The notes under the pieces were generated by a model. It was not told where the DNA came from. It did no database searches and worked only from the letters and a program-made list of their open reading frames with translations. Both the position numbers and the translations under genes were made by a program. From assembly GCA_040830765.1 (NCBI GenBank), contig JBFOMH010000026.1:56386-120385 (forward strand): a stretch of DNA of 64,000 nt, written 5' to 3'. Within the stretch, counting starts at the first letter, position 1. Every line of letters starts with the position of its first letter. Source of the DNA: Puniceicoccaceae bacterium (GTDB lineage: Bacteria > Verrucomicrobiota > Verrucomicrobiia > Opitutales > Oceanipulchritudinaceae). This document shows, one piece after another, positions 1,368-30,811 of the stretch.

Positions 1368-1370
1368 TCT

Positions 1371-2873: not shown

Positions 2874-2900
2874 GTCGATTTTCCTTTAGAGTAGGTTAGC

Positions 2901-15100: not shown

Positions 15101-15167
15101 GGAACTTCAACTGGATCTGCAGCCGTTCCTGCCCGATACCTTCTTCCGGATCGTGCTGACTGAATAA
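12150..15167 (+). CDS. Large secreted acidic protein with four internal ~210-aa repeats and a Verrucomicrobia-type C-terminal module
   Basis: Signal peptide from ATG 12150; repeated YPxG...GP(F/Y)...YP...W motifs; tail YASW...DYDGDKLNNYFEF...SSTNLVDW...FFRI. Confidence 0.8.
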   Translation: MHRKIFLLLLLTNCSLITLSEAATDILFAIKEQVFEQNGNNLAFAPQAYRFFAGAEGDGDLTALTVTYPGSGGPFPVPGSPGEFGLESPDYATIEELNAVYPNGDITFSLTDNGSTQDLGPFSISGDAYPVTPNISNALEFQDSDYSQDFQLNWNAFFGAGDEDRILLQIWDNQADSELISSGFLDATATSFTIPGGTLSVDRYYDIELLFINSSTGATNPQTVVGYLTTTRVLLSTHTSDTRLSLYKWRAQQQLSSTGDYTDPNYRFLSVVTGASKTVAGASLDTPVSDILASYFPFGENAYILASPFGPKETLDTTYPAGEYTFIVTEDSVNTAYGPFNLPGDDYPSNPQIINFAELQTIDPSESQTITWDSTPIGVSFIEVFVLDGDNNRIWYESFGPGFTTTQLPANTISLEGTYRLVIRYWAPKVTNERPPTALGYLSSTNMALGTSQGGGDPVIELAYVVKTQNFSQEGSAAPQAPYSWSMNAGLSGSDNIVSASFVHPSGTDVLDGFEGEYDLDGMDYGSQSELDSVYPDGEFDLLVSTGGPSQSLGPFQITGSAYPNAPHIQNALDLETHDLTQDFELTWNAFSSADEFDEILVEVYDETLDEGVIFERLAPTATSFVIPGNQLQPDRYYEIIVLFVNRVDALDSPEAIIGYLSVTEFRLSTHTSDTDILFYKRHQLEQTGVDQLEDLGYAQLVFVRGNSRSVDYGELFTPLSITPLINTAPNTLILAPGFGPKEVMDADYPAGEYGIGLNEDGQYTYYGPYVLSEDAYPEAPLFQNFSELQNVDASQEQQINWSASPDGVGAVTLQIRDASFRVIWSETLPPEATGTVIPASTLSKSSSYRFSLQFWVESSGSEMPDASVGYGTITRINVQTLPYSAAYASWLTQYFSAEQIADLAIVGEMVDYDGDKLNNYFEFLAQFDPTDNTSTLTVDFSFGVSDMLRVSPLAVGLPLEVQSSTNLVDWNPVGAESYEIIGEELQLDLQPFLPDTFFRIVLTE

Positions 15168-15410: not shown

Positions 15411-18400
15411 CTAGAGTCGTCCACTGATTCCAATCGTGAAGTTAATCCCGTATGAACTCGTCTCGCTCCGGCCGACCAATTGTCCGTAATACGGGAGTTC
15501 TCCTCCATCTGCCAAAATATAGGTATCCAAAGGATTGCTCTCAGTAATGTTACGTGCCGAAAAGTCGACCGACAGGTTTTTCGTGATGCGAAAGGATGCT
15601 GTTAAATCCAGGCGCAGATCTGCCGGCGATACCCTCTTTATCTCACGTAATTCACTTGCAGGTATTGGATCATCCAGTGTTCCGGGCTGGTACCAAGCCG
15701 GATTTCCGATGCGTGGATCGCTCCAGATAATCCCATCTAAAAGGTCTCTTGTGCGCTCGTTGCGCCAGGTAAAGTTAAGCTGAACCTGGAGGCGCTTGTA
15801 GCTGATACTGACCCCTCCAGATGCATTGAGCTCCGGAGAGCGGTCTTCTTCTATGTCGAGTAGATCCGATTCATTTTCCGCAATCTTCACGTCTTCAAAC
15901 CGCTGGGATAGGGAACCATACAAGTAGACATGTTTGCCCCAAATGCCCAGGAAACTCAAGTCGTGCCGAGCCTCGAGTTCATATCCATAATTAATGAAGG
16001 TGCTCAAGGAAGTAATGTCAGAGGAAACCTCCCATTCCTCATCCCAATACTCGGAGCCGGGACCGTAGCCCAGATCTCCCATGAGGAACTCCCAGTTCTC
16101 CCTGTCGGTCGAGGGCAAGAAGGTGACATTCACAGCCCGGTTTTTCTCCGTGTCATAAAATCCGTTCATGGAGAATTTGCCCCCGGTTGTGGTGTAGTAG
16201 GTCAAACCGGCATTCCAGGAGACGGTCCTCGCGATATCCAGATTCGGATTTGTTACCCTGAGTTCACCACCATATCCGCTTTCATCGGAGATGAAGTCAA
16301 ACCTGCGAAGGGTTCCTCCAGCTCCACCGGAACTTTCAAATGGGGGATTGGAGTAGCTGATTGACCACGATGCCCGCGCAACCAGCTTTTCCGTAATGTC
16401 AAAGGACGCGCTGATGATGGGTTGGGGCTGCCCTCGGGAAGCTTCATTTATCTGGAAATCCTTTACGTACTCAAGCTGTGTTGCCCGCAATGTGCGAGGC
16501 TGCACCCTCTGGTAATCGGCAGCTGAAAAGAGCGTACCGTCCGCATAGATGGCGCCCAGTTGCTCGAAGTAACCATAGAAGGTGGCGAAATTTGCCCGTA
16601 ATGCGGGGTCCGAGATGGAATCCAAACCGGGTCGCGTCGTCACGTCCATGAAATCGGGGGTGATGTCTTCAAATCCCGGAGCTAGATCAAGATCCTCTGG
16701 CCATGCCTCGATTACATCTGGAAACCCGTCCTGGTTCTCATCCCGAGGGTAAAAAAGCCGTCTCCAGCGACGGTTTATGGTGGGATTATTCCCTGCTCGC
16801 TCCCTTTCAGTGTAGCGGAACCCTCCAATAACGGATAGGCGTCCTTCAAAGAAGTCCCCCTCCAGTTGGGCGTATACCGCAGTTTTTGTCTCCAGGATGG
16901 CTTTTGAGGTATTCACCTCCTCTATGTAGTTACTTGCAGCTACGGAACGTTCTGTTCCTGAACCACCAAGCGGGACATCATCGTTTGTGTCACTGAATGC
17001 GCCCGGATTATTAATATGATAACTATACAGCTTGAATACGTCTGGCCATTCCAACGGATTTAAGCCAAATCCGGGATCGACTCCGGCATAGGTCTCATCC
17101 CGGAAGTCGTCGATATCCAACGGAGCGTTTTCCTCCTCGCCGACATAGAGGAATTGGTAGTTTGAACCTCGACCAAACTTGCGCTCATCCCGTTCCTCCC
17201 AGTCTGCACCGGCTTTCACGGCAAGGTTCATAAATCCGATCGGCAGAAAGTCGAGGTCCCGCCTCACATCAAATTTTACCGAATGAACTTCACTCAAGGA
17301 GTTGATTCCTGCAGCACGGACTTTCAAGGTCGCTGCTGTTGGATCCTCCGGGTCATAGTTGGCAATCCCGTAGTTTGTGAGATCGGCAATATCAACCTGT
17401 TCCCGATCCACCACATTCCCCTCTTCGTCCAAGATATCGCGGTAGTGATAGATATTCTGGGGTACGCCTAGATCATCGATTTCCAGAAACTCTGTAAAAT
17501 CGATTCCGCCCATGGACAGTTCGACAACTGAAAAATGACCTTTCTCCGCCGTGTTAATGTCACTCTCGGATCGAGAGTAGCTGTAATGGGCTCTTACGTT
17601 CCAAGGCCCCCTGATATACTGGGCCCTGATATATGCAGTTTGAGAGATCCCTTCACGACTAAATGCATCGGTATCCAGCCGGACACCTCCCGTATCGCTG
17701 AATACAAAGTCTTCTCCGAATACCGTAGGGGCCCCGATCGTTTGATGAACCCGGCGCTTGGCGTCCTGGTCCTCAAAGGTGGAGACGCTGTAGTTCGTCG
17801 TCAGGAGAAGTCCTTTCAGAGGACGCCAGTCCAATTTGATTCCCCCGGAAAGCTTTCTGGAAATCCTTGGTGAATCAGTAACTTGAACACGACTGATATA
17901 CGGATGGGCATAATCCCGTAGTACGCGACCAACCTCTTCGCCATCCCGGTTCACGAAAATGGGTAATTGGTTGTAGTTCTCAATGTCTTCCGGTGCCCAT
18001 GCTCCAAGGTTGTTACCCTCACGGTCATACCGGGGAAGCCGCTTTACTTTTTCCAGGACCTCTTCCAGTCGCGATTCCGGCACACCGGCTGCCGTATACA
18101 TCTGCACGAACTCTTCTTCCGTCCAGTTTGTCCAGTCGGCTCCATAGGTATCCTGCCACTGGTTGAACTGAGGATCGTTGACAAGCCAATAGGTGCGGTC
18201 TCCAAATACCGTCTCGTCTGCTTCCCGTTCAACCGGATGCCAGCCTTCCGGACTCCTGCTCACATTGACCCTGAGGCGATCATTCTCACTAGCCTGGTTC
18301 GCGCTCGCAAGGGTGAAGGTAAGGCCGATTTTATCATTCAAGGGAAGTGCATAAGTAAGATCCGCGTTGGGGAGGATCTTGTAAGTCTGTTTGTTCATCG

Positions 18401-19367
18401 GCCCCGGTGTCTTTTGAAAGGGCTTGAGCTCCTGTTCGGTGTTCGCGGAGACGCTGACCCGAAAGCTCAGCGTTGGCTTTGGATACTCAAATGCGGTTTT
18501 GCTGATCAGGTTGACGGTACCTCCGATCCCTGCATTGGGCTGGTCAGGTGTTGGTACCTTGATGACTTCTATTCGGGAAGCATTGTTGATGGAGAGCATG
18601 TCAAGGCCGATAGCTGGATCCAGCGTTCCCGGAGCAGCATTGGCGATTGGGATTCCGTCAATGGTGATGGCTGTTTCGTTCGCCCCGTATCCACGAATGG
18701 AAATAGTGTTGGCGTCTGCGCCTGAAGAATAGTTACCCCCGGCATCTCCACTCCCTCCATACCCAATGGTTACTCCCGGTATATACTTCACGAATTCTCC
18801 AATATTTCCCTGGGCAATCAGTCCATAGGCATCCGTATCGACAACGTTTTTGAGATTAACCGAATACCGCTCCTCCTGAATCGCCAGTTCTGAAACCTCC
18901 TGAAATGTTGGCCTGACTACATACTCCTCTAATTCGTATACATATTCCTCATCCGATCGGACATCCATTAGTCGGAAGTCGTGTTCAGCGGTCTCTCCTG
19001 CAGTGACGGTAACGGTTTTCGTTTCTGTTCGTTTCCCCGTAAAGCTGACCCGTAAGGTCACTTCGCCAGCAGGAACGTTAATCAACCGATATTCGCCAAA
19101 CTGGTTGCTGAAGGCACGGTTATTGCCGCCGACGACAGATACTTGAACACGGTTCATGTAGAGCCCCGTATTGGGATTGAATACCCGCCCTTGAATCGAT
19201 CCAGTCATCGTGGACCCGGGAGAATTGGCAGTTGATTGGGCGAACATCCCAGTAACCAGAACACCCGAAGCCAGCATGAAGACAGGGACTAGCTTAAGGA
19301 GCACCCGTACGGGAAGAAATTGATAGATTAGAGAGACCTTTGGAACACAGCGTTGGGTGACGCACAT
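15411..19367 (-). CDS. TonB-dependent receptor with N-terminal carboxypeptidase-regulatory-like domain
   Basis: GSIQGRVFN...GEYRLINVPAG; YELEEYVV; plug GEFVKYIPGV...RIEVIKVPTPD...GGTVNL; ends FTIGISGRL. Start probably 19367, after a C-rich leader (ORF-track start 19484). Confidence 0.88.
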   Translation of the reverse strand: MCVTQRCVPKVSLIYQFLPVRVLLKLVPVFMLASGVLVTGMFAQSTANSPGSTMTGSIQGRVFNPNTGLYMNRVQVSVVGGNNRAFSNQFGEYRLINVPAGEVTLRVSFTGKRTETKTVTVTAGETAEHDFRLMDVRSDEEYVYELEEYVVRPTFQEVSELAIQEERYSVNLKNVVDTDAYGLIAQGNIGEFVKYIPGVTIGYGGSGDAGGNYSSGADANTISIRGYGANETAITIDGIPIANAAPGTLDPAIGLDMLSINNASRIEVIKVPTPDQPNAGIGGTVNLISKTAFEYPKPTLSFRVSVSANTEQELKPFQKTPGPMNKQTYKILPNADLTYALPLNDKIGLTFTLASANQASENDRLRVNVSRSPEGWHPVEREADETVFGDRTYWLVNDPQFNQWQDTYGADWTNWTEEEFVQMYTAAGVPESRLEEVLEKVKRLPRYDREGNNLGAWAPEDIENYNQLPIFVNRDGEEVGRVLRDYAHPYISRVQVTDSPRISRKLSGGIKLDWRPLKGLLLTTNYSVSTFEDQDAKRRVHQTIGAPTVFGEDFVFSDTGGVRLDTDAFSREGISQTAYIRAQYIRGPWNVRAHYSYSRSESDINTAEKGHFSVVELSMGGIDFTEFLEIDDLGVPQNIYHYRDILDEEGNVVDREQVDIADLTNYGIANYDPEDPTAATLKVRAAGINSLSEVHSVKFDVRRDLDFLPIGFMNLAVKAGADWEERDERKFGRGSNYQFLYVGEEENAPLDIDDFRDETYAGVDPGFGLNPLEWPDVFKLYSYHINNPGAFSDTNDDVPLGGSGTERSVAASNYIEEVNTSKAILETKTAVYAQLEGDFFEGRLSVIGGFRYTERERAGNNPTINRRWRRLFYPRDENQDGFPDVIEAWPEDLDLAPGFEDITPDFMDVTTRPGLDSISDPALRANFATFYGYFEQLGAIYADGTLFSAADYQRVQPRTLRATQLEYVKDFQINEASRGQPQPIISASFDITEKLVARASWSISYSNPPFESSGGAGGTLRRFDFISDESGYGGELRVTNPNLDIARTVSWNAGLTYYTTTGGKFSMNGFYDTEKNRAVNVTFLPSTDRENWEFLMGDLGYGPGSEYWDEEWEVSSDITSLSTFINYGYELEARHDLSFLGIWGKHVYLYGSLSQRFEDVKIAENESDLLDIEEDRSPELNASGGVSISYKRLQVQLNFTWRNERTRDLLDGIIWSDPRIGNPAWYQPGTLDDPIPASELREIKRVSPADLRLDLTASFRITKNLSVDFSARNITESNPLDTYILADGGELPYYGQLVGRSETSSYGINFTIGISGRL

Positions 19368-19440
19368 AGTGGGTGTGGGATGGGTTTGGGGTGGGGGACC
19401 TTCGCGGTAGCGACTTCGCCCGTTGGTTGAAGGAGAAAGA

Positions 19441-19524
19441 ATTTCATGCCAGTGAAATAGTCCCCGGTCAAGAAATTTCACCATGATATAAAGTAAACAA
19501 TTAATATGAAATAAAACTATTTCA
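19441..19524. promoter_or_regulatory. Candidate operator sites in the divergent TBDR / secreted-protein promoter
   Basis: ATTTCA-N6-TGAAAT at 19441-19458, ATTTCA at 19475-19480, TGAAAT-N6-ATTTCA at 19507-19524. Confidence 0.45.
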
Positions 19525-19668: not shown

Positions 19669-21051
19669 ATGAAAACCATCACTTGGAATACTCGCAGCCT
19701 GCGCTCAGCAGGTGTCCTGTTATGCGCATGCACCCTTTTTTGCTCCATGAGGATGCATGCTGAACTTATTGCCTACGAAGGGTTCGATTACACTGCCGGA
19801 ACAATCCTGGGGCCGAATGACCTGATTGGTGAAGGTGAACTCGGCAATGGTTGGGAAGGGGTCTGGATCCGGTCGCGAAATTCAACCCCTAGTGGATATG
19901 CTCCGTTGCAGGATGGAAGTTTGTCCTATACTGATGCCTATGGAAGCACGCTCATAACTTCGGGTAATCACGTCCTGGTATCGGGACAGACTATGACAGA
20001 AGGCGGACAGAATACGACAGTTGGTCGCGATTTGGCCGGGCTGGAATCAACGCCTGGGAGCGTGTATTACATCTCCTTTATTGCCCAACGTCTCGGAGAT
20101 CCGGTGGATATGAGCAATGCGTATTGGGACACCCTTGATCCCCCGGGATACATTTATGGAACAAATGCCTATCCCCGGGCAGCGGGAGTCCGCTTCCTGC
20201 CAGATGCCGGCAACAATAAACTGAGTGCGCTCGTGGGTCGGTTTTCGAATCAGCCGACGGGTGTCTGGACGCTAGCAGGAGAAGCCCTCACGGGAGACAA
20301 TGATATTGAAAGTGATGTTCCCCTTACAGAGACATCCTTTATTGTGGTCAGGATCGAATATTTTGACGGGGGACCAGGTGTCGACTCAGGGGGTAACCCG
20401 ATTGACGTCATTGGGACAACCGTCAGCCTCTGGGTGAATCCGGAAAACCTCAAAATTGAGACTGCTCCCGTTGGCACGGCAACGCCGGTCGATGAAGATC
20501 TTGGTGATCAGCCGGTCCTTTGGGGGATTGATGGAATTGGGATTGAAGGTAACAATGAGTCGGTCACTCCCGAGGGATTTGTCACGCGCGCCGTCTCCAA
20601 GATTGCAGTCGATGAATTGCGCATCGGCACAACTTGGGATGATGTAACTCCCAGTGAGGGTGGTTCGTCCCCGATGTGGGCTCATTATCCAATCCAACCA
20701 GATGGTTCTTCAGTCGATACGGGCGGACTTGTCGGGTGGATCGATTATTCTGGTTCGGATTTTGTCTTTAGCTACAGTCTCGGCAAGTATATCTACATGC
20801 CTCAGGCTTATGTAAGCACATTGGGGGCCTGGTTCTTCATTCTCGGTGAGAGCACCCCACAGTCAGGTGAGTCATTGTGGGCTGGATACAGCAAGGACGC
20901 TGAAGGTTATGTCGACACAATGGGCCTGTTGGGTTGGATATGGGTTGGACCACAAGGTTACATATACAGCTTTGACCTTGGAAAGTATATTTACCTTCCG
21001 GAGGAATTTGTCATTTCCAGTGGTGCCTGGGCCTATGCCGGCGTTGAGTAG
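19669..21051 (+). CDS. Secreted hypothetical protein with two C-terminal aromatic-rich repeats
   Basis: Signal peptide; ELIAYEGFDY...DELRIGTTWDDV domain; tandem WAxY...VDTxGL(V/L)GWI...LGKYIY(M/L)P...GAW repeats. Confidence 0.8.
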   Translation: MKTITWNTRSLRSAGVLLCACTLFCSMRMHAELIAYEGFDYTAGTILGPNDLIGEGELGNGWEGVWIRSRNSTPSGYAPLQDGSLSYTDAYGSTLITSGNHVLVSGQTMTEGGQNTTVGRDLAGLESTPGSVYYISFIAQRLGDPVDMSNAYWDTLDPPGYIYGTNAYPRAAGVRFLPDAGNNKLSALVGRFSNQPTGVWTLAGEALTGDNDIESDVPLTETSFIVVRIEYFDGGPGVDSGGNPIDVIGTTVSLWVNPENLKIETAPVGTATPVDEDLGDQPVLWGIDGIGIEGNNESVTPEGFVTRAVSKIAVDELRIGTTWDDVTPSEGGSSPMWAHYPIQPDGSSVDTGGLVGWIDYSGSDFVFSYSLGKYIYMPQAYVSTLGAWFFILGESTPQSGESLWAGYSKDAEGYVDTMGLLGWIWVGPQGYIYSFDLGKYIYLPEEFVISSGAWAYAGVE

Positions 21052-21098: not shown

Positions 21099-21905
21099 TT
21101 ACTCGCTTCCGGCGACAATCGCGGTATCCCCGAGTCCTTCGGGGCCCATGCTCTGGTAGCCGCCATCGACTGGCAGGTCGGTGCCGGTTATGAAGGACGC
21201 ATCATCGCTGAGGAGAAACAGGACCGGCTTGGCGACTTCCTCGACGAAGCCCAGGCGTCTCAACATATGATACGCGCCCCAGACCGGGGTATACTTTTCC
21301 CGGTCGCCACCGGCTGCCTTGTCCACTTCCCGGGTCCAAATCCAGCCGGGGCTGACAGAGTTGACGCGGATCCCTTTCGAAGCCAGGTCCAATGCGGAGC
21401 ACTTGGTCAATTGATTGACGGCCCCCTTGGCGCAGTTGTAGGTCCATCGCTCCTTTTGCGCAACAAAGCCTGAAATGCTGGAAACGTTAACGATACTGCC
21501 TGCCCCGGACTTTTCCATGTGGGGAGTTACCAGTTGAGTCATCAAGGCGTAGGCAATTGGCCCGACAGCGTAAGTATGCTCCCAGTCTTCTGGTTTGGCA
21601 TCGAGCGCCTTGGCGAGAAAAGAGAAGGCATTATTAACCAGATAGTTGATTGTGCCCCACTTGTCGGCCGTTGCCTCCACGACATGTTGACAAAACGCCT
21701 CGTCTTTCATGTTGCCGGGGAAGAGCTCCACTTTGTATCCAGTCTCCTGTAACTTCTTATACGCCTCATCGCCGTCCTGTTCCAATCCAGTAATGGATAC
21801 CTTGCAGCCTTCCTGGCAGAGTGCTTCAGCGATGGCATAGCCAATGCCGGCTGTGCCTCCGGTTACGATGGCGACCTTGTCTTGAAATCTTTTTGAATGA
21901 CTCAT
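21099..21905 (-). CDS. SDR family oxidoreductase
   Basis: TGGTAGIG, VNNA, SSIS, YNCAK, NSVSPG, ITGTDLPVDGG. Confidence 0.92.
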   Translation of the reverse strand: MSHSKRFQDKVAIVTGGTAGIGYAIAEALCQEGCKVSITGLEQDGDEAYKKLQETGYKVELFPGNMKDEAFCQHVVEATADKWGTINYLVNNAFSFLAKALDAKPEDWEHTYAVGPIAYALMTQLVTPHMEKSGAGSIVNVSSISGFVAQKERWTYNCAKGAVNQLTKCSALDLASKGIRVNSVSPGWIWTREVDKAAGGDREKYTPVWGAYHMLRRLGFVEEVAKPVLFLLSDDASFITGTDLPVDGGYQSMGPEGLGDTAIVAGSE

Positions 21906-21906
21906 T

Positions 21907-22869
21907 TTACTTTCCTATCTGGTTGACCGGGTTCTTTGGGGCCCCGCCCCTGAGGCAGCGGACCATCTCTTCCGCTGCGCACTTTTGCAGATTCGTAATG
22001 CTGGACTCACTGTAGTAGGACATATGCGAGGTGAGAAGGGCGTTCTCGCAGCTCAGCAGAGGATGATCCAGTGGGATGGGTTCCTCTTCGAAAACATCAA
22101 TCCCGGCATAGGCGATTATCCTATTGTTCAGTGCCTCCGCCAGATCGACTGTGTTAATCAGGGGTCCCCGGGCCGTATTGATGAGGATGGAAGTTGGCTT
22201 CATCGCGGCAAGGGTATCCTTGTTGACGAGATGTTTGTTTTCCCCCGTCATGGGAGCGTTGATGCTCAAAACGTCGGCGATTGAAAACATCTCCTCAACG
22301 CTGTGCAACCGGCTGACGCCTGTTTCAGTGAACAAGGCATCGTCGACAAAGGGATCGTAGGCATGCAGCTTGAACCCGAAGGCTTTGGCTCTCCGATGAA
22401 TGCCACAGGCAATGCGGCCCAGCCCGTAGGTGACAAAGTTCATTTCCCTGAAGGCATGCATGGGAGTGACTGGACTCAGGGACCAGTTTCCCTTTCGCAA
22501 GCGTTTATCGAGGGCGGGTAATTGGCGTCCCAGCGCCAATGCCAGGCTGACAGCGTGATCGGCAACTTCCTCAATGCAGTAGTCCGGAATATTGCAAACC
22601 TGGATGCCTTTAGCCGTTGCCGCCTCAAGGTCGACATTATCGTACCCGATGCCATAGCGGATGATCGCTTTGCAGTTCTCCAGTTGGTCGATCAACGCCT
22701 TAGTGAAAGGGGAGAATTGAACAAATATGCCATCCGCATCCTTGGCGTGCTGGACGATTTCATCTACCGTATCCCAGGGACCTACGGACAGGGTTGCGCC
22801 AATGGAATCCATGGCGGCCTTTTCATGAACATGGTCCGCAAAGGAATTTCTGGTTATGACAGTCTTCAT
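21907..22869 (-). CDS. D-isomer-specific 2-hydroxyacid dehydrogenase (CtBP-like subfamily)
   Basis: RYGIGYDNVD, NIPDYCIEEVADH, GLGRIA, LINTARG, DVFEEEP, TSHMSYYS. Confidence 0.9.
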   Translation of the reverse strand: MKTVITRNSFADHVHEKAAMDSIGATLSVGPWDTVDEIVQHAKDADGIFVQFSPFTKALIDQLENCKAIIRYGIGYDNVDLEAATAKGIQVCNIPDYCIEEVADHAVSLALALGRQLPALDKRLRKGNWSLSPVTPMHAFREMNFVTYGLGRIACGIHRRAKAFGFKLHAYDPFVDDALFTETGVSRLHSVEEMFSIADVLSINAPMTGENKHLVNKDTLAAMKPTSILINTARGPLINTVDLAEALNNRIIAYAGIDVFEEEPIPLDHPLLSCENALLTSHMSYYSESSITNLQKCAAEEMVRCLRGGAPKNPVNQIGK

Positions 22870-22878
22870 GTTATCTGC

Positions 22879-23892
22879 TTACGGATTCAGGATTGCCTTA
22901 ATGTGGTTGCCTTGAGGATTCAACATGGTGCGAAAGGCTTTTTCTCCCTCATCAAGGGTATAACGGTCTATCCAGTCCAAATTGATCTTCTGGTTTTTCA
23001 ATAAATCGATCGCGATTTTGTAATCCGGTTGATTGGCCGAGTATGTCCCGAGAACCTGTTTCTCACCCAGTGTAATTCCGTAGCTGTTAAGGCTTATCTT
23101 GTCCGTGCCCAGTCCCAGCCACACGGCGCAGCCGCCCGGTCGCAGGCATTCGATGGATTGGGCTTTTGTCGATTCCGTTCCGGCAGCATCGACCACAACA
23201 TCAAATCCTTCGCCTTTGGTAAAATCCAGCATTTGGTCCCGGTTGCTTTCGTCTCCGGCAAGGCTGGTTGCTGAAGCCCCCAGCATCTTCGCGGTATCCA
23301 GCCTTTCCTGTATCGTGTCGGTTACATAGGTCCTTGTTCCCATTAGGACCTGCAGTGCCTGCTGGCACATCAGTCCGATGGGACCGGCTCCAATAACCAG
23401 GGCATTCTGCGGGTTGGTGTGCCTCGTCAGGCTGACAACATGAACGCCATTGCCCAACGGTTCGGTCAGGCAGGCATGATTCGCGGGCAAGCTGTCCGGC
23501 CACTGGTAAAGTGCGTGGATGGGGACACTCACATACTCCGCAAATGCACCGTTGCGGTGCATGCCAAACAATTCCTTGTTCGGACACAGGTGGTAATTGC
23601 CCCGATGGCAAGTTTGACATTTGCGACAGGGAACCAGCGCACTGACGATCACCCTGTCGCCAACCCTGAAGTCCCCTCCGGTTGAAATGTCGACAATTTC
23701 GCCGCAAAACTCATGCCCGAGAATGATGGGCGGCTTTCGCCTTCGGCTTATTGACTTAAAGGATTCCAGCTCGCTCCCGCAAATTCCACAGGCAGCTACC
23801 TTGACGATGGCCTCATCCATTTGTGAGAGGCTCGGATCGGTGAATTCCTGAAGTTCTATCGTTTCCCAATCTACGTAAACGAGGGCCTTCAT
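22879..23892 (-). CDS. Zinc-dependent (MDR) sugar/polyol dehydrogenase
   Basis: CGICGSE, LGHEFCG, structural Zn site CRKCQTC...C, GAGPIG. Confidence 0.9.
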   Translation of the reverse strand: MKALVYVDWETIELQEFTDPSLSQMDEAIVKVAACGICGSELESFKSISRRRKPPIILGHEFCGEIVDISTGGDFRVGDRVIVSALVPCRKCQTCHRGNYHLCPNKELFGMHRNGAFAEYVSVPIHALYQWPDSLPANHACLTEPLGNGVHVVSLTRHTNPQNALVIGAGPIGLMCQQALQVLMGTRTYVTDTIQERLDTAKMLGASATSLAGDESNRDQMLDFTKGEGFDVVVDAAGTESTKAQSIECLRPGGCAVWLGLGTDKISLNSYGITLGEKQVLGTYSANQPDYKIAIDLLKNQKINLDWIDRYTLDEGEKAFRTMLNPQGNHIKAILNP

Positions 23893-24743
23893 AAATGATA
23901 AATTCTCCTCGCGTTGGCATTGAAAAACAGCACCTGCTCGGTGTCGCTGAAATCATCCAGATAACGGGTAATCGTCTCGTACCACCTTGCGTAGGTTCCG
24001 TTCAGTGTGCAGACGGGCCAATCGCCACCAAAGAACACCCGGTCGATTGTGAATTGCTCAAAGACGGTGTCGAGGTAAGGCCGCAGGTCCTCGTACGACC
24101 AGTCCTCTCCAGCCTCATTCATGAGACCGGACACCTTGCTGGTGGTATTGGGTAGGCTCGCCAGTTGGGCGATGTATTCATCCCAGGGGGAGAGAATTCC
24201 GTCCGCGATGAAGGGCTTACCGATGTGGTTGAGGATAAAGGGGACATTGGGTGTTTGCCGGACCAGGGAGAGGACATTCTCGAATTGCTGATCCCCCTTG
24301 ATGCAAATCTCAAAGTTCCAACCACACTTTTCCATCAGTTGGACGCCTTTTATAAAGTCGGGTTGCAGGCAGAATTCATCATCGTCTTCAAATTGGATAA
24401 TCCTCCGAATGCCGTTAACGAGTGGGTAATCCTTCAGCTTGTCGATATCCTCCTGGGCGGCATCTCCCTTTTCCAGCGGTGCCCAGGCGGTAATGGATTG
24501 GATGCGTGAGTCTTGCGTTTGTGCGATGTCGCTCACCCACTTGACTTCATCCAGGTACTGACTGGGCTCCGCTTCGCACTGGAGGAAGACCATTTTTTCA
24601 ATCTCGATGCCCTGCGTGGCCTTCTTGTAATCGGGAATCAGGTGGGGGGCATTGATGCTGGGGACATCCTTCAACCAAGGGTAATGGATGGCGTTGGGAT
24701 CCCAAAGGTGCAAATGGGTGTCGATAATCGGGGTCTTATTCAT
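23889..24743 (-). CDS. Amidohydrolase family protein (L-fucono-1,5-lactonase-like sugar-acid lactonase)
   Basis: IIDTHLHLWD, GIRR, LNHIGKP, SKVSGL, FGGDWPVC; ATGA overlap with the downstream dehydrogenase. Confidence 0.85.
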   Translation of the reverse strand: MNKTPIIDTHLHLWDPNAIHYPWLKDVPSINAPHLIPDYKKATQGIEIEKMVFLQCEAEPSQYLDEVKWVSDIAQTQDSRIQSITAWAPLEKGDAAQEDIDKLKDYPLVNGIRRIIQFEDDDEFCLQPDFIKGVQLMEKCGWNFEICIKGDQQFENVLSLVRQTPNVPFILNHIGKPFIADGILSPWDEYIAQLASLPNTTSKVSGLMNEAGEDWSYEDLRPYLDTVFEQFTIDRVFFGGDWPVCTLNGTYARWYETITRYLDDFSDTEQVLFFNANARRIYHL

Positions 24744-24809
24744 CGTTCACAAGGGGGATTTAACGGGCGCATTCTCCATGAGACGGAGTATTCTGACAGT
24801 ATCGGTGGA

Positions 24810-25877
24810 TTATGTCGGTGAGGAAGACTTTGGCAACGCAATCGGATGGACATACTCGGGATCCTTCTCCTGCCGGTACTGAATGGTGGCAATCTCCTTC
24901 CATACGGCAATGAGGCCGTGCTTGGTCGGCGGGAGGTCATGCCGGATGAGGCGGTGTAACCTGGCTAACCGGTAGCACGGCACAGCGGCATACATGTGAT
25001 GCTCCGTGTGGAAATTCATATGCCAGTAGAGGAATTGAACGACTGGATTAAGGGTGAACGTGCGGCAGCACAGGCGGAAGTCCGGTACAAAATCCCGCAG
25101 GCCGATATGCTGGGTATTGTTGCACAGGAAAAAGAGCCATCCACCATAGAAACGGGAACCGGTGACCAGCAGGGGCACTATCCAGTATCCACTAACCAAT
25201 CCCCCCGCGATAATCAGGCCATGGCCGAGGAGTAGCACTCGTGCCCAATTTACAGGAGCCTTGCGCTTCTTCGGGTCAGACTCCGGAAACAAGGTTTCCT
25301 CCCATTCGCCTTTAAAATTCCCCAGGGCCTTCTCGATGACCCATTTTGGGGTGTAGTAAAGGTCCTTGAAATTGATGAAGGCAGAGAGGAAAAAGTGACG
25401 CACCATCAGTTTGATGGGCAGGACAACCTCCAAATCGTCTGGCGGATGCAAAGTGTACCGATGGTGGCGGATATGGCTCTCCTGGAAGGTCTCATCATTG
25501 ATTATCCCGAGAAACGCGAAGATCTTGCAAAAGAAACGATTGCACCAGCGGGTTTTGAAGACGGTTCCATGCCCCAATTCATGCACGGCGTTGATCATGA
25601 AGGCGGCTACGGTCCCGTGCAGAAATACCAACAGCACGGTGGTCCAGGCGGGCCAGAATGCGAAAGAGACGATGGCCAGGGTGAGGGTGGTCAGGTAGAG
25701 GCCCAGGTATCCGCCTGTCTGCAGGGCCCCCAAGAGGTCGCTTTTGCGGTGAAGGCTCTTGAATTCCTCCTTTGATATCGGGCTGCGGTACCAGTCAATC
25801 GCCGGGGCATTGCGCTGTTTGGCTGTAAAGACGGGGAGGGCATCCGGCTCTTGGGGAAGAGGAGATGGGATCTTCAT
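24810..25877 (-). CDS. Membrane fatty-acid-desaturase superfamily protein, MocD (rhizopine oxygenase)-like
   Basis: His boxes HELGH, HIRHH, HTEHH; N-terminal WYRSPI...RKSD, TQHIGL and FLYWHMNFHTEHHMYAAVPCY resemble the MocD-like subfamily. Confidence 0.75.
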   Translation of the reverse strand: MKIPSPLPQEPDALPVFTAKQRNAPAIDWYRSPISKEEFKSLHRKSDLLGALQTGGYLGLYLTTLTLAIVSFAFWPAWTTVLLVFLHGTVAAFMINAVHELGHGTVFKTRWCNRFFCKIFAFLGIINDETFQESHIRHHRYTLHPPDDLEVVLPIKLMVRHFFLSAFINFKDLYYTPKWVIEKALGNFKGEWEETLFPESDPKKRKAPVNWARVLLLGHGLIIAGGLVSGYWIVPLLVTGSRFYGGWLFFLCNNTQHIGLRDFVPDFRLCCRTFTLNPVVQFLYWHMNFHTEHHMYAAVPCYRLARLHRLIRHDLPPTKHGLIAVWKEIATIQYRQEKDPEYVHPIALPKSSSPT

Positions 25878-26075
25878 TTCGTCATCCTAACACAATCAGC
25901 AATGGATTGCTTTCTAAAATCTACGGCAATCCGTAATTATCGGCCCAAAACCATCCACGTCCTTGACTTCTCGTTGATTTAACCTAACACAGAGGCCAGT
26001 GGTTGCCGCAACGGGACAGATTCTCAAATCTCTGGACTTCAACTTACGGCGTGGACGTCTTGTCACGGGATAAGC

Positions 26076-29000
26076 ATGCAATTCTTCCGCAATCTATCCA
26101 TTCGGGCAAAGCTGATGAGCATTCTTATGTTCAGCTGTGTCATTTCGTCGGGATTGGTGGCGGTTGCCTTCCTGACCTATGAGTTGGTCAACGTCCGCAG
26201 TTCAATGGTCAAAAGGCTGCTGACCGACGCAAGAGTCATCTCGGTGAACATCCGCGAGCCGATGCTCTCCGGCAACAAGGCCGCTGCCGACGAAATCCTC
26301 GCCACGCTCAGCACCGACCGGAGCATAGTGGCCGCCTTCCTCTTTGATAGCGAAGGGGCAGTTTTTGCCACTTTCCAGAGGGATACAGAGAATCCGATGG
26401 CGGCTCCCGACCCCGATGCCAAAAAGCAAGGATTCTCCCTCGGCCAGTTACGGATTTCCGAACCCATCCAGCAGGCTAATCAGCAACTGGGGACGATTTT
26501 CATCGCCCAGGATCTTAACAAGCTGAAAATGTGGGTCTTTCCCTACGTAGGCATCCTGAGCTGGGGGCTGCTCATCTCCATCCTGGTGGCGGTGATTTTG
26601 TCCAATTTGCTGGGTCGTGTCTTCTTGAGGCCGATTCTTGAACTTGCCGCAACCACCCGGCGAATCACCCGGAAACACAACTACAGCACCAGGGCCAAGT
26701 CGTTCTACAACGATGAAGTCGGCCAGTTGATCGATTCCTTCAATGAGATGCTGTCCGTGGTTGAGAACAAGGAACACGACCTCCGCGATCGTGAACAGCG
26801 CTTCCGGGCCCTGATTGAAAATGCCTCGGACCTTATCATCATTCTCAACAGCGAGGGCCAGATCATCTATGGTAGCCCCTCCCTGAGCCGCCTGTTCAAT
26901 AACGATGCCAAGGAGTATATCGGCCAGTCATTTTTTGAATTCATGCACCCTTCAGATGTCTGGCGCTGCAAACAGACCTTTCAGCGGCTGAAGAAGCGGA
27001 GCAATACGCTGCTTGGGTTTGAATTCCAGTTCAAGGGCAGGGACGGGTCATGGATGGACATTGGCGCTATTGCCCGGAACCTTCTCCATGTCAGTGGGGT
27101 CAACGGCATCGTTGTCAATGGCCGGGATGTGACCTCCCGCAAGGAACTGACCAAGGAACTCATCACCCACAGGGATGATCTTGAGCAAATGGTCGCTGCC
27201 AGAACCCAGGACCTGGAGGCCTCCCGCAAGGCAGCTCTTGACTCGATGGAGGATGCCAATCTGCAGCGACTGCGGGCTGAGGACGCACTGGCTGAGCTTA
27301 CCCTGTCGCAGGAATCCCTCGCCAGGGCCAAGGATGCCGCTGAAGAGGCCAGCAAAGCCAAGAGTAACTTCATCGCCAACATGAGCCACGAGATCCGCAC
27401 CCCCATGAATGCTGTCATCGGGTTGGCGGACCTGGCCTTGAAGTCGGACTCCAAAAAGAAACAGACCGACTACCTGGAGAAGATTCTCCGTGCATCGAGG
27501 ATCCTTCTGGGGATCATCAATGACATCCTGGATTTCTCCAAGATTGAACAGCGCAAGGTGGAGCTGGAAGCGACAACCTTCGACCTGCACGAGGAGATGC
27601 GAACCATCAATGAAATGTTCGCACGGAACATCGAGGACAAGGGACTCTCCCTCAGGGTTGATTTCGCCCAGGATATTCCGGCTAACGTGGTCGGGGATCC
27701 GCTGCGGCTGCGCCAGATTCTCATCAACCTCTTCAGCAATGCCATCAAGTTTACTGAGAAAGGGGAAATTTCGCTTTCCGCCCGCATGGTCAAGCATGAG
27801 GAGGGCCAGATTACGCTGGAATTTTCCGTATCTGACACCGGTATCGGGATGGACGAGGAGCTCACGGCCAAGGTGTTTGAATCCTTCAAGCAGGGGGATG
27901 AGTCGACAACCCGTGTATTTGGCGGAACCGGTCTGGGCCTAGCGATCAGCAAGCACCTGGTGGAACTGATGGGCGGGACCATCTCTGCCAAAAGCTTCTA
28001 CGGCAAGGGGAGTACCTTCACCTTCACCGTGGTGTTCGAGGAGGCGGTAATGGAATCGATTCCCGAGGCACCAACCGGTCTTGAAGGACTCCGGATTCTC
28101 GTCGTCGACGAGGAAAAGGAGGTTCAGGAGATGCTCTCCCATCTGCTCAAGGACTTTTCGTTTCGAACCGCTACCGCTGGTTCGGTTGACGAGGCGGTCA
28201 AGATGCTGGGGGCGGCTCCGTTTGGCGATCCGTTCCGGCTGGTCATTCTCGACTGGAACATGCCTGAAAAGAAGGGTACGGAGGCGGTCAAAATCATCAC
28301 CGAACTCAATACAATCCCGCTCAAACCAAGCTACATGATCATGAGCGGCTACTGGAACGAGGAATTGCACAAGGACCTGGATGAATGTGGCGTCACCGCC
28401 TTCCTGCCCAAGCCCTTCAAGAGTTCCACCCTGCTGGACCTCATTATCCGGCAGTTCTCGGACGAGGTGATGGATGTTGTTCGAGCGGTGAAGGATTCAG
28501 ATGCTTCCGGCATTCCCGACTTAAGCCATGCCAACCTGCTTCTCGCGGAGGACAATGAGCTCAACCAGGAAGTTGCCCTCGGACTGCTCGAGGAGACCCA
28601 GTGCAAGGTCTTCGTGGTCGAAAACGGTAAAGCTGCCTTGGAAGCCATAACAGAAGACACCTATGATCTGGTTCTGATGGACATCCAGATGCCTGAGTTG
28701 GACGGTTACGAAACGACCCGGCAGCTTCGCGACATGGAGTCGAGGGGAGAACTTCCGAAACGGGATAACGGCGATGCCAACGATGGCCGAATCCCCATCA
28801 TTGCCATGACTGCCGGCACCCTTAGTCGGGACAAGGATCGCGCCTTCGAAGCGGGAATGGATGACCATGTATCAAAACCGGTGGATCCGAAGTTGTTTTA
28901 CAAGGTACTTGCCAAGTGGCTTGGGGGCGTCGCCGCGGAAGGCTCTAGTGTCGGCAAAAAGCGGGTACTTTCCCCGAAGGACGAGACAAAGTCGGATCAA

Positions 29001-29648
29001 TCAGAAGGCATCCTGACTTCACTGGCGCCATTCCCGGGCATTGAACTTGAAAAGGGCTTGATGCACGTCGGTGGCAATGAGGAACGCCTCGGAAAGCTGA
29101 TGCTGAAATTCCGCAAGGGCCAGGCCAATGTTGTGGAGGAAATCAAGACCGCGCTCGCCGACGGCGACCGCGAACTGGCACACCGGACGGCCCATACCTT
29201 GAAAGGCCTCGCGGGAACACTCGGGGCCACCACTCTGCAGGAAGCTGCCCGAGTACTTGAAGCAGCGCTTAAGGGTGAACCGGGAAAGAAAGACGAAGAC
29301 GCCCTCCTGGTGGACGTGGAGCAATCCCTTCAGGAAGTAATTGAAGGACTTGCCCCTCTGGAGACCGTTCCCTCCTCTGGCGCGAAAAAGAAGAGATCGG
29401 TCAAAATCTCCAAGAAGGAACGGACACGATTGCTGAACAAGCTCTCAAGCTTGCTGGAGGATGGCGATTCCGAGGCCATTGCCTGTTATAATGAGCTAAA
29501 CGAGGCTGGAGTGTTTTCCACCGGCAGTGGCCAGCCTGACCAGCTCGGCAGCCTGATTGAAGCCTACTCGTTCGAGGAAGCCAAGGCGGTCCTGAAGACG
29601 ATAATGGAGAGTCCTGAAGATGATAAGGAAGCTGTGAAAGATGACTGA
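26076..29648 (+). CDS. Hybrid sensor histidine kinase (TM-periplasmic sensor-HAMP-PAS-HisKA-HATPase-REC-REC-HPt)
   Basis: MSHEIRTPMN, NLFSNAIKFT, DTGIG, GGTGLGL, two receiver domains (LDWNMP, MDIQMP), HPt AHTLKG. Confidence 0.93.
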   Translation: MQFFRNLSIRAKLMSILMFSCVISSGLVAVAFLTYELVNVRSSMVKRLLTDARVISVNIREPMLSGNKAAADEILATLSTDRSIVAAFLFDSEGAVFATFQRDTENPMAAPDPDAKKQGFSLGQLRISEPIQQANQQLGTIFIAQDLNKLKMWVFPYVGILSWGLLISILVAVILSNLLGRVFLRPILELAATTRRITRKHNYSTRAKSFYNDEVGQLIDSFNEMLSVVENKEHDLRDREQRFRALIENASDLIIILNSEGQIIYGSPSLSRLFNNDAKEYIGQSFFEFMHPSDVWRCKQTFQRLKKRSNTLLGFEFQFKGRDGSWMDIGAIARNLLHVSGVNGIVVNGRDVTSRKELTKELITHRDDLEQMVAARTQDLEASRKAALDSMEDANLQRLRAEDALAELTLSQESLARAKDAAEEASKAKSNFIANMSHEIRTPMNAVIGLADLALKSDSKKKQTDYLEKILRASRILLGIINDILDFSKIEQRKVELEATTFDLHEEMRTINEMFARNIEDKGLSLRVDFAQDIPANVVGDPLRLRQILINLFSNAIKFTEKGEISLSARMVKHEEGQITLEFSVSDTGIGMDEELTAKVFESFKQGDESTTRVFGGTGLGLAISKHLVELMGGTISAKSFYGKGSTFTFTVVFEEAVMESIPEAPTGLEGLRILVVDEEKEVQEMLSHLLKDFSFRTATAGSVDEAVKMLGAAPFGDPFRLVILDWNMPEKKGTEAVKIITELNTIPLKPSYMIMSGYWNEELHKDLDECGVTAFLPKPFKSSTLLDLIIRQFSDEVMDVVRAVKDSDASGIPDLSHANLLLAEDNELNQEVALGLLEETQCKVFVVENGKAALEAITEDTYDLVLMDIQMPELDGYETTRQLRDMESRGELPKRDNGDANDGRIPIIAMTAGTLSRDKDRAFEAGMDDHVSKPVDPKLFYKVLAKWLGGVAAEGSSVGKKRVLSPKDETKSDQSEGILTSLAPFPGIELEKGLMHVGGNEERLGKLMLKFRKGQANVVEEIKTALADGDRELAHRTAHTLKGLAGTLGATTLQEAARVLEAALKGEPGKKDEDALLVDVEQSLQEVIEGLAPLETVPSSGAKKKRSVKISKKERTRLLNKLSSLLEDGDSEAIACYNELNEAGVFSTGSGQPDQLGSLIEAYSFEEAKAVLKTIMESPEDDKEAVKDD

Positions 29649-30801
29649 TAAAAAGCCCACTATTCTGGCGGTCGATGATGAACCGGCCAATCTGGACGTC
29701 CTGATCGGATTATTGAAGGACCAGTACCGGGTTAAAGTTGCCACTAACGGGGCAAATGCTTTGAAGCTGGCAACCACCAGCGAGCCACCGGACTTGGTCC
29801 TGCTCGATATCCTGATGCCGGAAATGACCGGGATCGAAGTATGCCGGGCAATGAAGGAATTCAGCCAGTTGAAGGATGTTCCGGTCATTTTTATCAGTTC
29901 CCTTGAGGAGGTTATGGACAAGGTGCAAGCCTTCACCTCAGGAGGCGTTGATTATGTCACCAAGCCGTTTCAGCCTGAGGAATTGCTGGCCCGGGTCAGC
30001 ACCCACTTGACCCTCAGGAAGATGCAGAAGCAGCTTGAAGAACATAATAACCACCTCGATGAGCTGGTTCGCCGCAAAAGCCGGGAACTGGCCGAAGCGC
30101 ATGACCGGCTGGACCTCGTCTCCCGGACCAAGGGGGAATTTCTCAAGCTTATCTCCCATGAGTTGCGTACCCCGGCAAACGGGGTTCTCGGAATTGCCGA
30201 TATCATCATGGAGAGTTGTCCGGACAACGAGGAGATCAGCTCCCTGCGTCCCTTTTTCAAGGAATCGCAGGAACGCATGCTCTCCGTCCTGGAGGATGCG
30301 CTTCTATTGGCCGAGGTTGATTTTTCGCAAGACGACTTCAAGGCAGCGCCGGTTTCCCTGGAAATGATACTCGCCGAAGCCTTTGGCGAGGCGGTCGAGT
30401 TCGCCATTGAGCATGATGTCCAGATTGGAGACATTCCGCTGTGCGACACGGATGTGGATGGCGATGAAAAACTGTTCAGAATGTCCCTGACCGCCCTTCT
30501 AAAGACGGCTGTTATCTTTAGTGCGCCCAATGAAGAAGTGGTTGTCCGTTGTATCGATGGAGACACGACAGCTTCGCTCATTATGGAGGTCACCGGCAAG
30601 ACCCTTGATGATGATATCATCGCCGGATTCTTTGACTTGTCCAGCAGCACGCGCAGCAGCACACCTGCTGAAGTCCTCGGTCTGAGACCGGTGGTGGCGG
30701 ATCGGGTGGTATCCCTTTACGGGGGCTTTGTCCAGTTGCGGAATCACGACGACAGCGGAATCGTGTTGAACGTGACGATGAAAAAGTCCCTCAGCGGGTA
30801 G
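29641..30801 (+). CDS. Response regulator fused to HisKA and a degenerate HATPase domain
   Basis: REC VDDEP...LLDILMP...KPF; H-box ISHELRTP; N, G1 and G2 boxes degenerate; 8-bp overlap with the upstream kinase. Confidence 0.85.
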   Translation: MTDKKPTILAVDDEPANLDVLIGLLKDQYRVKVATNGANALKLATTSEPPDLVLLDILMPEMTGIEVCRAMKEFSQLKDVPVIFISSLEEVMDKVQAFTSGGVDYVTKPFQPEELLARVSTHLTLRKMQKQLEEHNNHLDELVRRKSRELAEAHDRLDLVSRTKGEFLKLISHELRTPANGVLGIADIIMESCPDNEEISSLRPFFKESQERMLSVLEDALLLAEVDFSQDDFKAAPVSLEMILAEAFGEAVEFAIEHDVQIGDIPLCDTDVDGDEKLFRMSLTALLKTAVIFSAPNEEVVVRCIDGDTTASLIMEVTGKTLDDDIIAGFFDLSSSTRSSTPAEVLGLRPVVADRVVSLYGGFVQLRNHDDSGIVLNVTMKKSLSG

Positions 30802-30811
30802 CTGGTTCCAG

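Follow-up and report, generated by a model that had tools for sequence, protein, structure and literature searches.

Two described enzyme systems are built around membrane-bound di-iron proteins of the FA_desaturase superfamily. The alkane hydroxylase AlkB is partnered by a rubredoxin (AlkG) and a rubredoxin reductase (AlkT), and in the AlkM/AlkR system of Acinetobacter the AraC-type regulator is encoded divergently and the redox partners elsewhere. The rhizobial MocD, which acts with MocE and MocF, has been proposed, not proven, to demethylate 3-O-methyl-scyllo-inosamine. PMC10107442 states no more than that mocDEF is needed for rhizopine catabolism. Marine Flavobacteriia, according to two papers (PMC10033563, PMC6292453), demethylate 6-O-methyl-D-galactose by means of a P450 and its redox partners; the former adds that these oxygenase genes have a Zn-dependent alcohol dehydrogenase (Zn-ADH) gene as their neighbour, which growth on the methyl sugar requires. 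The subject of this study is a further member of the FA_desaturase superfamily, P0001, encoded in a 64,000-nucleotide stretch of DNA (the window) from a Puniceicoccaceae bacterium (Verrucomicrobiota; Opitutales; Oceanipulchritudinaceae; assembly GCA_040830765.1, contig JBFOMH010000026.1, positions 56,386 to 120,385), whose genome assembly comprises 3.99 Mb in 40 contigs and is 96.9% complete. An aldehyde dehydrogenase encoded in the window falls into one 90%-identity cluster with an NCBI protein attributed to a Puniceicoccaceae MAG. Judged from its sequence, P0001 does not belong to the lipid desaturases but is a cousin of MocD that stands outside the MocD clade, in an uncharacterised sister clade. 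Its gene heads a cluster of five, and the four genes downstream are a conserved Opitutales unit that already existed when the oxygenase gene was joined to it.

The five cluster genes are co-oriented open reading frames (ORFs) on the minus strand; 66 bp lie between the first two, the second and third overlap by 4 bp, and gaps of 9 bp and 1 bp follow. In order of transcription they encode the membrane-bound di-iron oxygenase P0001 (24810..25877; 355 amino acids (aa); Pfam E 5.8e-34), a COG3618-type Amidohydro_2 protein resembling aldonolactonases, P0002 (23889..24743; 284 aa; E 1.6e-33), a Zn-dependent medium-chain dehydrogenase, P0003 (22879..23892; 337 aa; ADH_N E 7.1e-28, ADH_zinc_N E 9.4e-24), a D-isomer-specific 2-hydroxyacid dehydrogenase (2-HADH), P0004 (21907..22869; 320 aa; 2-Hacid_dh_C E 6.5e-50), and a short-chain dehydrogenase/reductase (SDR), P0005, a candidate aldose 1-dehydrogenase (21099..21905; 268 aa; adh_short_C2 E 1.8e-58). 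All five are real genes and not chance ORFs. An earlier reading of the DNA from its sequence alone (the sequence-only reading) had described this co-oriented set with its spacings, the protein families and the three histidine (His) boxes of P0001, all of which the ORF list, Pfam and the translation confirm. It had also found the operon devoid of ferredoxin, reductase and dehydratase genes; accordingly, neither Pfam nor NCBIfam recognises such a domain in any of the five proteins. The sugar-oxidising character that it ascribed to the downstream genes is apparent as well, as these do look like a sugar-oxidising unit.

P0001 matches PF00487 with 118.4 bits, above the gathering cut-off of 29.7, which places it in the membrane FA_desaturase superfamily. 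The nine histidines of its boxes (HELGH, residues 99-103; HIRHH, 135-139; HTEHH, 290-294) are invariant in 18 of 18 aligned family members, and hydrophobic stretches lie at about residues 56-99 and 216-240. In NCBIfam, the lipid desaturase models DesB and DesA yield 22.7 and 22.4 bits against cut-offs of 500, so P0001 does not belong to these families. The top model is GntB, L-arginine gamma-hydroxylase, with 36.6 bits against a cut-off of 380, and P0001 is not a member of this family either. When a profile of the P0001 family was compared with PDB sequences, AlkB chains were the sole matches, weak ones that cover the N-terminal part only (22.8 and 18.5 bits). A Foldseek search of the PDB with an AlphaFold2 model of P0001 (pLDDT 72.5, pTM 0.75) returned nothing at E <= 0.001; the best TMq of 0.55 belonged to a chain of a chloroplast motor complex, AlkB had values of 0.44-0.46 (E 0.09-0.3) and stearoyl-CoA desaturase 0.31, and no lead to a function emerged. 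An identity as an AlkB-type alkane 1-monooxygenase was rejected given the weak profile and fold scores and a genome that lacks rubredoxin.

The phylogenetic position of P0001 was determined in two trees, one of 78 rows (tree 1) and one of 64 rows to which desaturases of the same phylum had been added (tree 2). Both are quick searches without an approximately unbiased (AU) test, include some long rows and do not contain the authentic MocD of S. meliloti L5-30. In both trees the P0001 clade is split from the MocD-like and Rieske-fused proteins by branches of 0.93-1.02 with a support of 100 in the Shimodaira-Hasegawa-like approximate likelihood ratio test (SH-aLRT); in tree 1 this branch (1.02) divides a P0001 clade of 54 rows from a MocD-like/Rieske-fused clade of 13. 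The P0001 clade of tree 2 holds 36 rows (SH-aLRT 100) and forms, together with the MocD-like clades, a group of 52 rows (SH-aLRT 93), from which the five Delta9-type rows are set off by a branch of 2.72 and the three Delta5-type rows by one of 4.19. These lipid-type desaturases have classical His boxes, and two of them score 416-464 bits on the Delta5 DesA model (cut-off 500). Outside the His boxes, the P0001 clade and the MocD-like proteins have polar core residues in common (D148, E150, D266, R268, R272, and W285), and they differ at R31, Q53, Y141, H144, H219, F267, and C301/Y302. The sequence-only reading had called P0001 a MocD-like oxygenase implicated in a function other than lipid desaturation. 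The latter part agrees with the distance of P0001 from the Delta9- and Delta5-type enzymes. The former is correct insofar as P0001 groups with MocD-like oxygenases apart from acyl-lipid desaturases, but it has to be narrowed to a separate sister clade of MocD, in which the fused redox domains are rubredoxins and not MocE-type Rieske domains.

Relatives of P0001 are numerous and widely scattered. A word-indexed search returned 3237 proteins at E <= 0.001, the best 120 of which share 58-91% identity with P0001; the few named among them are 'fatty acid desaturases' of Verrucomicrobiota. When 1.84 billion representatives were searched exhaustively, 168 proteins (50%-identity clusters) matched at E <= 1e-30. 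With one genome per species 592 relatives were found, and the best 80 of these (46-65% identity) belong, according to their record titles, to Verrucomicrobiota, Planctomycetota, Chloroflexota, Latescibacterota, Poribacteria, Gemmatimonadota, and others. The distribution is patchy, with no orthologue in any of 36 genomes of the same family; ten of these contain only matches of 31-35% identity inside reading frames of 734-793 aa, and copies with 41-49% identity exist in two genomes of the same order. A metagenome scan detected 46 loci, none with more than 66% identity over most of the protein. Among 72,556 plasmids, 279 records matched at E <= 1e-8. Those listed are 29-34% identical to P0001 over about 95% of its length and are nearly all MocD-like genes, annotated as 'fatty acid desaturase family protein' and in one case as 'hydrocarbon oxygenase MocD-like protein'; the weakest matches listed are other PF00487 genes (E 4e-12 to 3e-8). 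A literature search, supplements excluded, retrieved no paper on the P0001 clade or on its rubredoxin-fused forms.

The four downstream genes were traced through 401 genomes of the phylum, nine of which, including the source genome, have a lactonase match at E <= 1e-70. Five of the eight other loci carry Zn-ADH, SDR, 2-HADH and lactonase genes collinear on one strand, with 47-62% identity; of the remaining three, one has three of the four genes, one has two, and one the lactonase alone. Two further loci in closer relatives contain two or three of the four. In the window all four homologues are likewise adjacent on one strand, in the order lactonase, Zn-ADH, 2-HADH, SDR, unlike the order in the relatives, where the unit is flanked by genes for heparinase II/III-like proteins, a GxGYxYP putative glycosidase and a RhaT-like transporter. 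The best sugar-related NCBIfam models for P0002 and P0005 are L-fucono-1,5-lactonase (FuconLaconase; 131.3 bits, cut-off 400) and L-fucose dehydrogenase (FucosDh; 148.8 bits, cut-off 300), a resemblance that holds at the superfamily level only. The nearest solved chains for P0002 are 6uvz and 4dlf (77-82 bits), the latter of which we take to be a fuconolactonase. For P0003 the best model is threonine 3-dehydrogenase with 189.8 bits (cut-off 380). SDR and lactonase may act as a pair, aldose 1-dehydrogenase and lactonase, on a sugar of L-galacto configuration, with the other two dehydrogenases acting after them. Dehydratase, aldolase and FAH-type hydrolase genes are absent from the four-gene unit.

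Because none of ten unit loci contains the oxygenase and none of 96 oxygenase loci an adjacent lactonase, the arrangement seen in the window is a derived, lineage-specific join. The closest relative, at least, appears to have it too, as its oxygenase (91% identity) and its lactonase (84%) are each encoded on a 57,590-nt contig. The 66-bp spacer between the two genes (24744..24809) lacks a terminator-like site; a promoter-like hexamer pair with 10 of 12 matches (24836-24809) overlaps the end of the oxygenase gene. In this lineage the five genes probably form one transcription unit. Nine public sequencing runs (X1-X9), two of them on record as RNA, contain all or part of the stretch; the parts that they leave uncovered are uninformative, and read depths were not used. 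From a run recorded as metatranscriptomic stems a 1785-nt contig (23386-25170) that begins within the Zn-ADH gene, runs through the lactonase gene and the spacer, and takes in 361 nt of the oxygenase gene. A 255-nt contig of run X6 (24579-24833) was not counted as bridging, as it has only 24 letters on the oxygenase side. Runs labelled mollusc metagenome and runs of a second, coded organism from another study contain near-identical sequence, and the bacterium therefore appears to be animal-associated.

Gene neighbourhoods of the oxygenase elsewhere were surveyed by a seed search, which gave 129 loci, 127 with a recognised oxygenase and 96 with at least 5 kb of flank (the well-flanked loci). 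The neighbour counts are lower bounds, because only one to three seeds per family were used. Most often the oxygenase gene is paired with a divergent AraC-type regulator: this family occurs within 8 kb at 26 of the 96 loci and is adjacent at all 26, which suggests an inducible catabolic gene. Other families within 8 kb are PhyH (18 loci, adjacent at 8), SDR (14, adjacent at 5), creatininase (11, adjacent at 6), Zn-ADH (11, adjacent at 2), Gfo/Idh/MocA (11, adjacent at 1), URO-D-like proteins (8, adjacent at 5), and Amidohydro_2 (3, one of them within 3 kb, none adjacent). Of the 152 immediate neighbours, 144 were analysed with Pfam, which verified the AraC assignment at 13 loci and revealed xylose-isomerase-like TIM barrels in five, FAH hydrolases in four, aldo-keto reductases in three and ceramidase-like proteins in two; no family of fatty-acid or acyl-lipid synthesis was among the matches. 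In a blastp comparison of 80 loci, weak homologues (<= 38% identity) of the Zn-ADH were found in 7, of the 2-HADH in 4 and of the SDR in 11, and a homologue of the lactonase in none within 8 kb. The operon composition that the sequence-only reading took as its starting point is thus, with the Amidohydro_2 counts given above, no property of the oxygenase family.

Within the Opitutales, one orthologue lies directly upstream of a GH29 (glycoside hydrolase family 29) alpha-L-fucosidase gene on the same strand and has a divergent AraC gene; in tree 2 this copy groups with the rubredoxin-fused forms. A second is accompanied by 2-HADH, aldehyde dehydrogenase, PhyH and Amidohydro_2 genes. In four Opitutaceae genomes, the oxygenase gene respectively overlaps a downstream gene on the same strand for a rhamnosidase-like six-hairpin protein, directly precedes a GH2 enzyme gene on the same strand, lies near GH5, GH31, esterase and PhyH genes, and stands beside a protein kinase gene and an unknown gene. 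As a post-hoc reading of five loci, this suggests a glycan flavour of the Opitutales copies.

The electron donor of P0001 probably differs from that of MocD. A Pfam scan for fusions, which covered 14 of the 168 proteins at E <= 1e-30, found rubredoxin fused in five (39-46% identity), two of which add a Pyr_redox_2 plus Rbx_binding reductase, and a Rieske domain in three (33-36% identity). In the trees the rubredoxin fusions fall inside the P0001 clade and the Rieske fusions with MocD. P0256 and P0262 (43-46% identity) are single chains of 811-818 aa that combine oxygenase, rubredoxin and rubredoxin reductase with Rbx_binding; the literature search brought up no paper on such triple fusions. 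Free-standing partners are scarce near the oxygenase: MocE and reductase seeds had no match in the 96 well-flanked loci, and rubredoxin was found at one of the 127 loci, there fused to the oxygenase. A search for MocE- and MocF-like partners, which a MocD-like enzyme would have led one to expect, thus came up empty in the cluster and in these loci. Rubredoxin is also absent from five of five Opitutales genomes with oxygenase orthologues. With the Rieske Pfam model, no cytochrome bc1/b6f-type Rieske subunit was detected in the source genome.

Taken together, these data point, tentatively and with somewhat less than even confidence, to P0001 as an O2-dependent hydroxylase of a glycan-derived small molecule that has been recruited to, and feeds, an oxidation unit of the fucose/galactose type. 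In the manner of its MocD-like cousins, the membrane-anchored di-iron enzyme would most likely hydroxylate a small water-soluble compound released from glycans and not a membrane lipid; were the target a methyl ether, hydroxylation would be demethylation in effect. The product would then enter the four downstream enzymes, where the SDR would oxidise an aldose of the L-fucose/L-galactose type to the lactone, the lactonase would open this to the aldonate, and the Zn-dehydrogenase and 2-HADH would oxidise the aldonate further. Substrate class, reaction type and functional coupling to the downstream genes are each conjectural. In addition to the grouping with MocD-like proteins, this proposal draws on the sugar-related settings of the MocD-like plasmid loci, the shared polar residues, the orthologues that neighbour glycoside hydrolase genes, the pairing with AraC, the patchy distribution, the collinear four-gene unit, the contigs of the closest relative, and the spacer, which has no terminator-like site and is bridged by the 1785-nt contig.

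Several observations weigh against it. No oxygenase homologue (tblastn E <= 1e-20) exists at any of the ten unit loci, and no lactonase homologue at the 80 oxygenase loci compared. Four of the five genomes with the full unit do have an oxygenase orthologue (53-59% identity), which is located about 250 kb or about 520 kb from the unit, or on another contig. Contexts outside the Opitutales are mixed (PhyH, SDR and creatininase, as counted above), and therefore the substrate may not be a sugar or may differ between subclades. None of the five proteins exceeds the cut-off of a family-specific NCBIfam model. The source genome contains no rubredoxin, no free-standing Rieske protein (Rieske domains occur only inside two fused paralogues on another contig) and no small 2Fe-2S ferredoxin (Fer2 domains occur only in reading frames of 271-644 aa). 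Finally, the 1785-nt contig is weak support for co-transcription, because the RNA library may hold DNA and a contig across genes is no proof of one transcript.

Other roles of P0001 have to be weighed against the same evidence. Were its substrate hydrophobic (a membrane lipid, an alkyl chain or an isoprenoid), the enzyme would desaturate or hydroxylate it, and an accidental genome rearrangement would have put the gene in front of the sugar unit. The missing conservation of the join and the ceramidase-like neighbours at two loci would be in line with this, as would the Pfam FA_desaturase match and the two hydrophobic hairpin regions; however, long branches separate P0001 from the Delta9- and Delta5-type desaturases, the DesA and DesB scores of about 22 bits compare with cut-offs of 500, and none of the Pfam matches among the 144 neighbours belongs to acyl-lipid or fatty-acid synthesis. 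In relatives of 39-46% identity the oxygenase is fused to rubredoxin and in some cases to rubredoxin reductase as well, which are the partners of AlkB, and a divergent AraC gene with redox partners encoded elsewhere recalls AlkR/AlkM; yet the AlkB profile match amounts to 22.8 bits, none of the five Opitutales genomes with orthologues has rubredoxin, and the oxygenase is an accessory gene that often adjoins glycoside hydrolases. A hydrophobic substrate is regarded as rather unlikely. Clearly more doubtful still is a function unrelated to the sugar genes, the hydroxylation of small nitrogen compounds (guanidino or creatinine-like compounds, or betaine-like osmolytes) in the way GntB acts on L-arginine. 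GntB is the best NCBIfam match, but its 36.6 bits are far under the cut-off of 380. Creatininase (11 of 96) and PhyH dioxygenases (18 of 96) do occur within 8 kb, although the creatininase-adjacent loci examined by Pfam (L037, L042, L051) carry Latescibacterota or Gemmatimonadetes titles and not Verrucomicrobiota, and the nearest relatives of P0001 have AraC or glycoside hydrolase neighbours. A distant plasmid relative (26% identity; L177, NZ_CP123586.1, 91931-98824) is encoded between the genes for 5-guanidino-2-oxopentanoate decarboxylase and a ferredoxin subunit, with an Xaa-Pro peptidase-family gene next, which suggests a desaturase-like hydroxylase of a guanidino compound in that case.

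The proposal of the sequence-only reading was that P0001 is an O-demethylase, which would strip methyl ethers from methylated sugars and release formaldehyde while the downstream enzymes oxidise the freed sugar. P0001 is indeed related to MocD-like proteins (29-34% identity), but it lies outside their clade, and a MocE/MocF partner is absent from the window and the 96 loci. A ketopantoate hydroxymethyltransferase-like gene in rhizobial MocD-like operons could handle the one-carbon unit, URO-D-like genes lie within 3 kb of the oxygenase at 8 of the 96 loci, and pectate-lyase and TonB-receptor genes are near the cluster. In the source genome, however, class III formaldehyde dehydrogenase reaches at best 77.5 bits (cut-off 544) and hexulose-6-phosphate synthase was not found, these two being the only formaldehyde-detoxification markers sought. 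The sole biochemically established sugar O-demethylase found in the literature is P450-based, and the one P450 of this genome resides in a carbohydrate locus of its own. O-demethylation by P0001 is therefore unsupported, and on balance it appears distinctly unlikely. A bolder variant, to which only a very slight probability is given, holds that P0001 either adds a hydroxyl to the C6 methyl group of a 6-deoxy sugar, as in a conversion of L-fucose to L-galactose, or demethylates a methylated deoxy sugar. Catabolism of the sugar could then follow an L-galactose-type route by way of aldose dehydrogenase, lactonase and aldonate dehydrogenase, with no need for the customary dehydratase and aldolase. 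Contextual hints in this direction are the fucosidase and rhamnosidase-like genes directly downstream of Opitutales orthologues, the fucose/galactose-type SDR and lactonase, the unit without a dehydratase, and a tagaturonate epimerase-like gene elsewhere in the genome.

Two other loci of the source genome also bear on sugar demethylation. The only P450 gene (L227:6620-7852, within G000:C27:26000-41000) is surrounded by genes for a sulfatase, a BD-FAE esterase, an oligogalacturonate-lyase-like protein and two Gfo/Idh/MocA proteins, and its product may correspond to the P450 sugar demethylase. Its neighbourhood contains no recognisable ferredoxin gene; a 104-aa ORF that precedes the P450 gene was rejected as a candidate, as Pfam does not match it and it lacks a Cys pattern for cluster binding. 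The second locus (L176, G000:C11:1-20000) encodes two fusions of FA_desaturase, Rieske and FNR-type reductase domains, 690 aa (cut by the contig end) and 764 aa long, which are in effect self-sufficient MocD-E-F-like enzymes. They flank a cluster of three URO-D-like genes, DUF1638, a RACo-type corrinoid activase, two AraC regulators, an esterase, an aldose 1-epimerase and a tagaturonate-epimerase-like gene, and a fourth URO-D-like gene and a GNAT gene follow just past the second fusion. This locus resembles corrinoid methyl-transfer machinery placed beside oxygenases among sugar genes, and arguably sugar demethylation is more to be expected here than from P0001.

Upstream of the cluster, the 198 bp (25878..26075) that separate the oxygenase gene from a divergently transcribed gene for a hybrid histidine kinase (26076-29648, plus strand) are presumed to hold the promoter, although a promoter scan reported no strong promoter-like site in this interval. 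The kinase (1190 aa, with CHASE8, HAMP, PAS, two receiver stretches and Hpt) may have a role in control of the cluster. It is the first of three two-component genes that adjoin the cluster (26076-31993), the remaining two encoding receiver-kinase proteins. The pectate lyase and TonB-dependent receptor that had been noted nearby are present in the window as a Pectate_lyase_4 protein (8036-10063) and a receptor at 15411-19484. Adjoining the receptor gene are two genes on the plus strand (12051-15167, 1038 aa; 19669-21051, 460 aa) whose products have no Pfam, NCBIfam or PDB sequence match and do not resemble what is encoded around the four-gene unit elsewhere; both may act on glycans without being recognisable as such. 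At the edge of the window, positions 3-4031 (minus strand) resemble a lysine-degradation segment, with a 2-oxoadipate dioxygenase/decarboxylase (HGLS), an aldehyde dehydrogenase and a saccharopine-dehydrogenase-like gene.

The wider relevance of the locus lies in the thousands of oxygenase copies, all annotated as nothing more than 'fatty acid desaturase', in glycan-degrading members of the Verrucomicrobiota, Planctomycetota and Chloroflexota and of sponge-associated phyla. Were sugars or other small metabolites their substrates, annotation would be wrong on a large scale, and the degradation of methylated or deoxy sugars would include an O2-dependent step that has been missed. Should the bolder variant prove true, P0001 would found a widespread clade of membrane di-iron sugar oxygenases in glycan-degrading bacteria of the Planctomycetes-Verrucomicrobia-Chlamydiae (PVC) group, in Chloroflexota and in sponge-associated phyla. 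The window is a rare physical joining of such an oxygenase gene to a recognisable sugar-oxidising unit and offers a handle on the substrate; the lack of an obvious electron donor is a separate puzzle.

Of the described systems, MocD is one of the closest; P0001 and the MocD-like proteins have the superfamily, the three His boxes and the polar core residues in common, are 29-34% identical across some 95% of the length, and fall into the same 52-row group. The gene contexts are alike as well: MocD-like plasmid operons, like the P0001 locus, lie in sugar or cyclitol settings, and all four examined are set among LacI, TIM-barrel, sugar ATP-binding cassette (ABC) transporter or Gfo/Idh/MocA genes. 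P0001 differs by its separate clade (SH-aLRT 100, with the authentic MocD of S. meliloti L5-30 outside the trees) and by its surroundings, as a MocE-type 2Fe-2S ferredoxin gene is next to the oxygenase in four of four plasmid loci and a FAD reductase gene is also present in three of four, whereas the window and the 96 loci have no adjacent Rieske ferredoxin or FAD reductase. The likeness to AlkB/AlkG/AlkT consists in the membrane di-iron fold family, the fusion of P0001-clade relatives to rubredoxin and a Pyr_redox_2/Rbx_binding reductase, and the common divergent AraC gene; the sequence similarity is weak, however, the source genome and five related genomes are without rubredoxin, and the neighbours are glycan genes and not alkane genes. 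The downstream unit recalls the L-fucose route, to whose dehydrogenase and lactonase models P0005 and P0002 come nearest, far below the cut-offs. A parallel is also seen with L-galactose catabolism. The plant enzyme GALDH_ARATH is an aldo-keto reductase and not an SDR. As reported in PMC12632266, Bacteroides vulgatus and Luteolibacter convert L-galactose via L-galactonate to D-tagaturonate, and their L-galactose dehydrogenases group with GALDH_ARATH. These routes accordingly use other enzyme families for the first step than the SDR of the window, and a Zn-dehydrogenase acting on an aldonate would parallel the L-galactonate dehydrogenase described there (PMC12632266). The P450 demethylase of the Flavobacteriia (heme P450, ferredoxin and reductase) belongs to an unrelated enzyme family and would be a functional analogue of P0001 if the demethylation idea is right. 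GntB of guanitoxin biosynthesis, whose function is taken from the model name and of whose family P0001 is no member (36.6 bits, cut-off 380), provides a precedent for a desaturase-like membrane enzyme that acts on a free polar metabolite.

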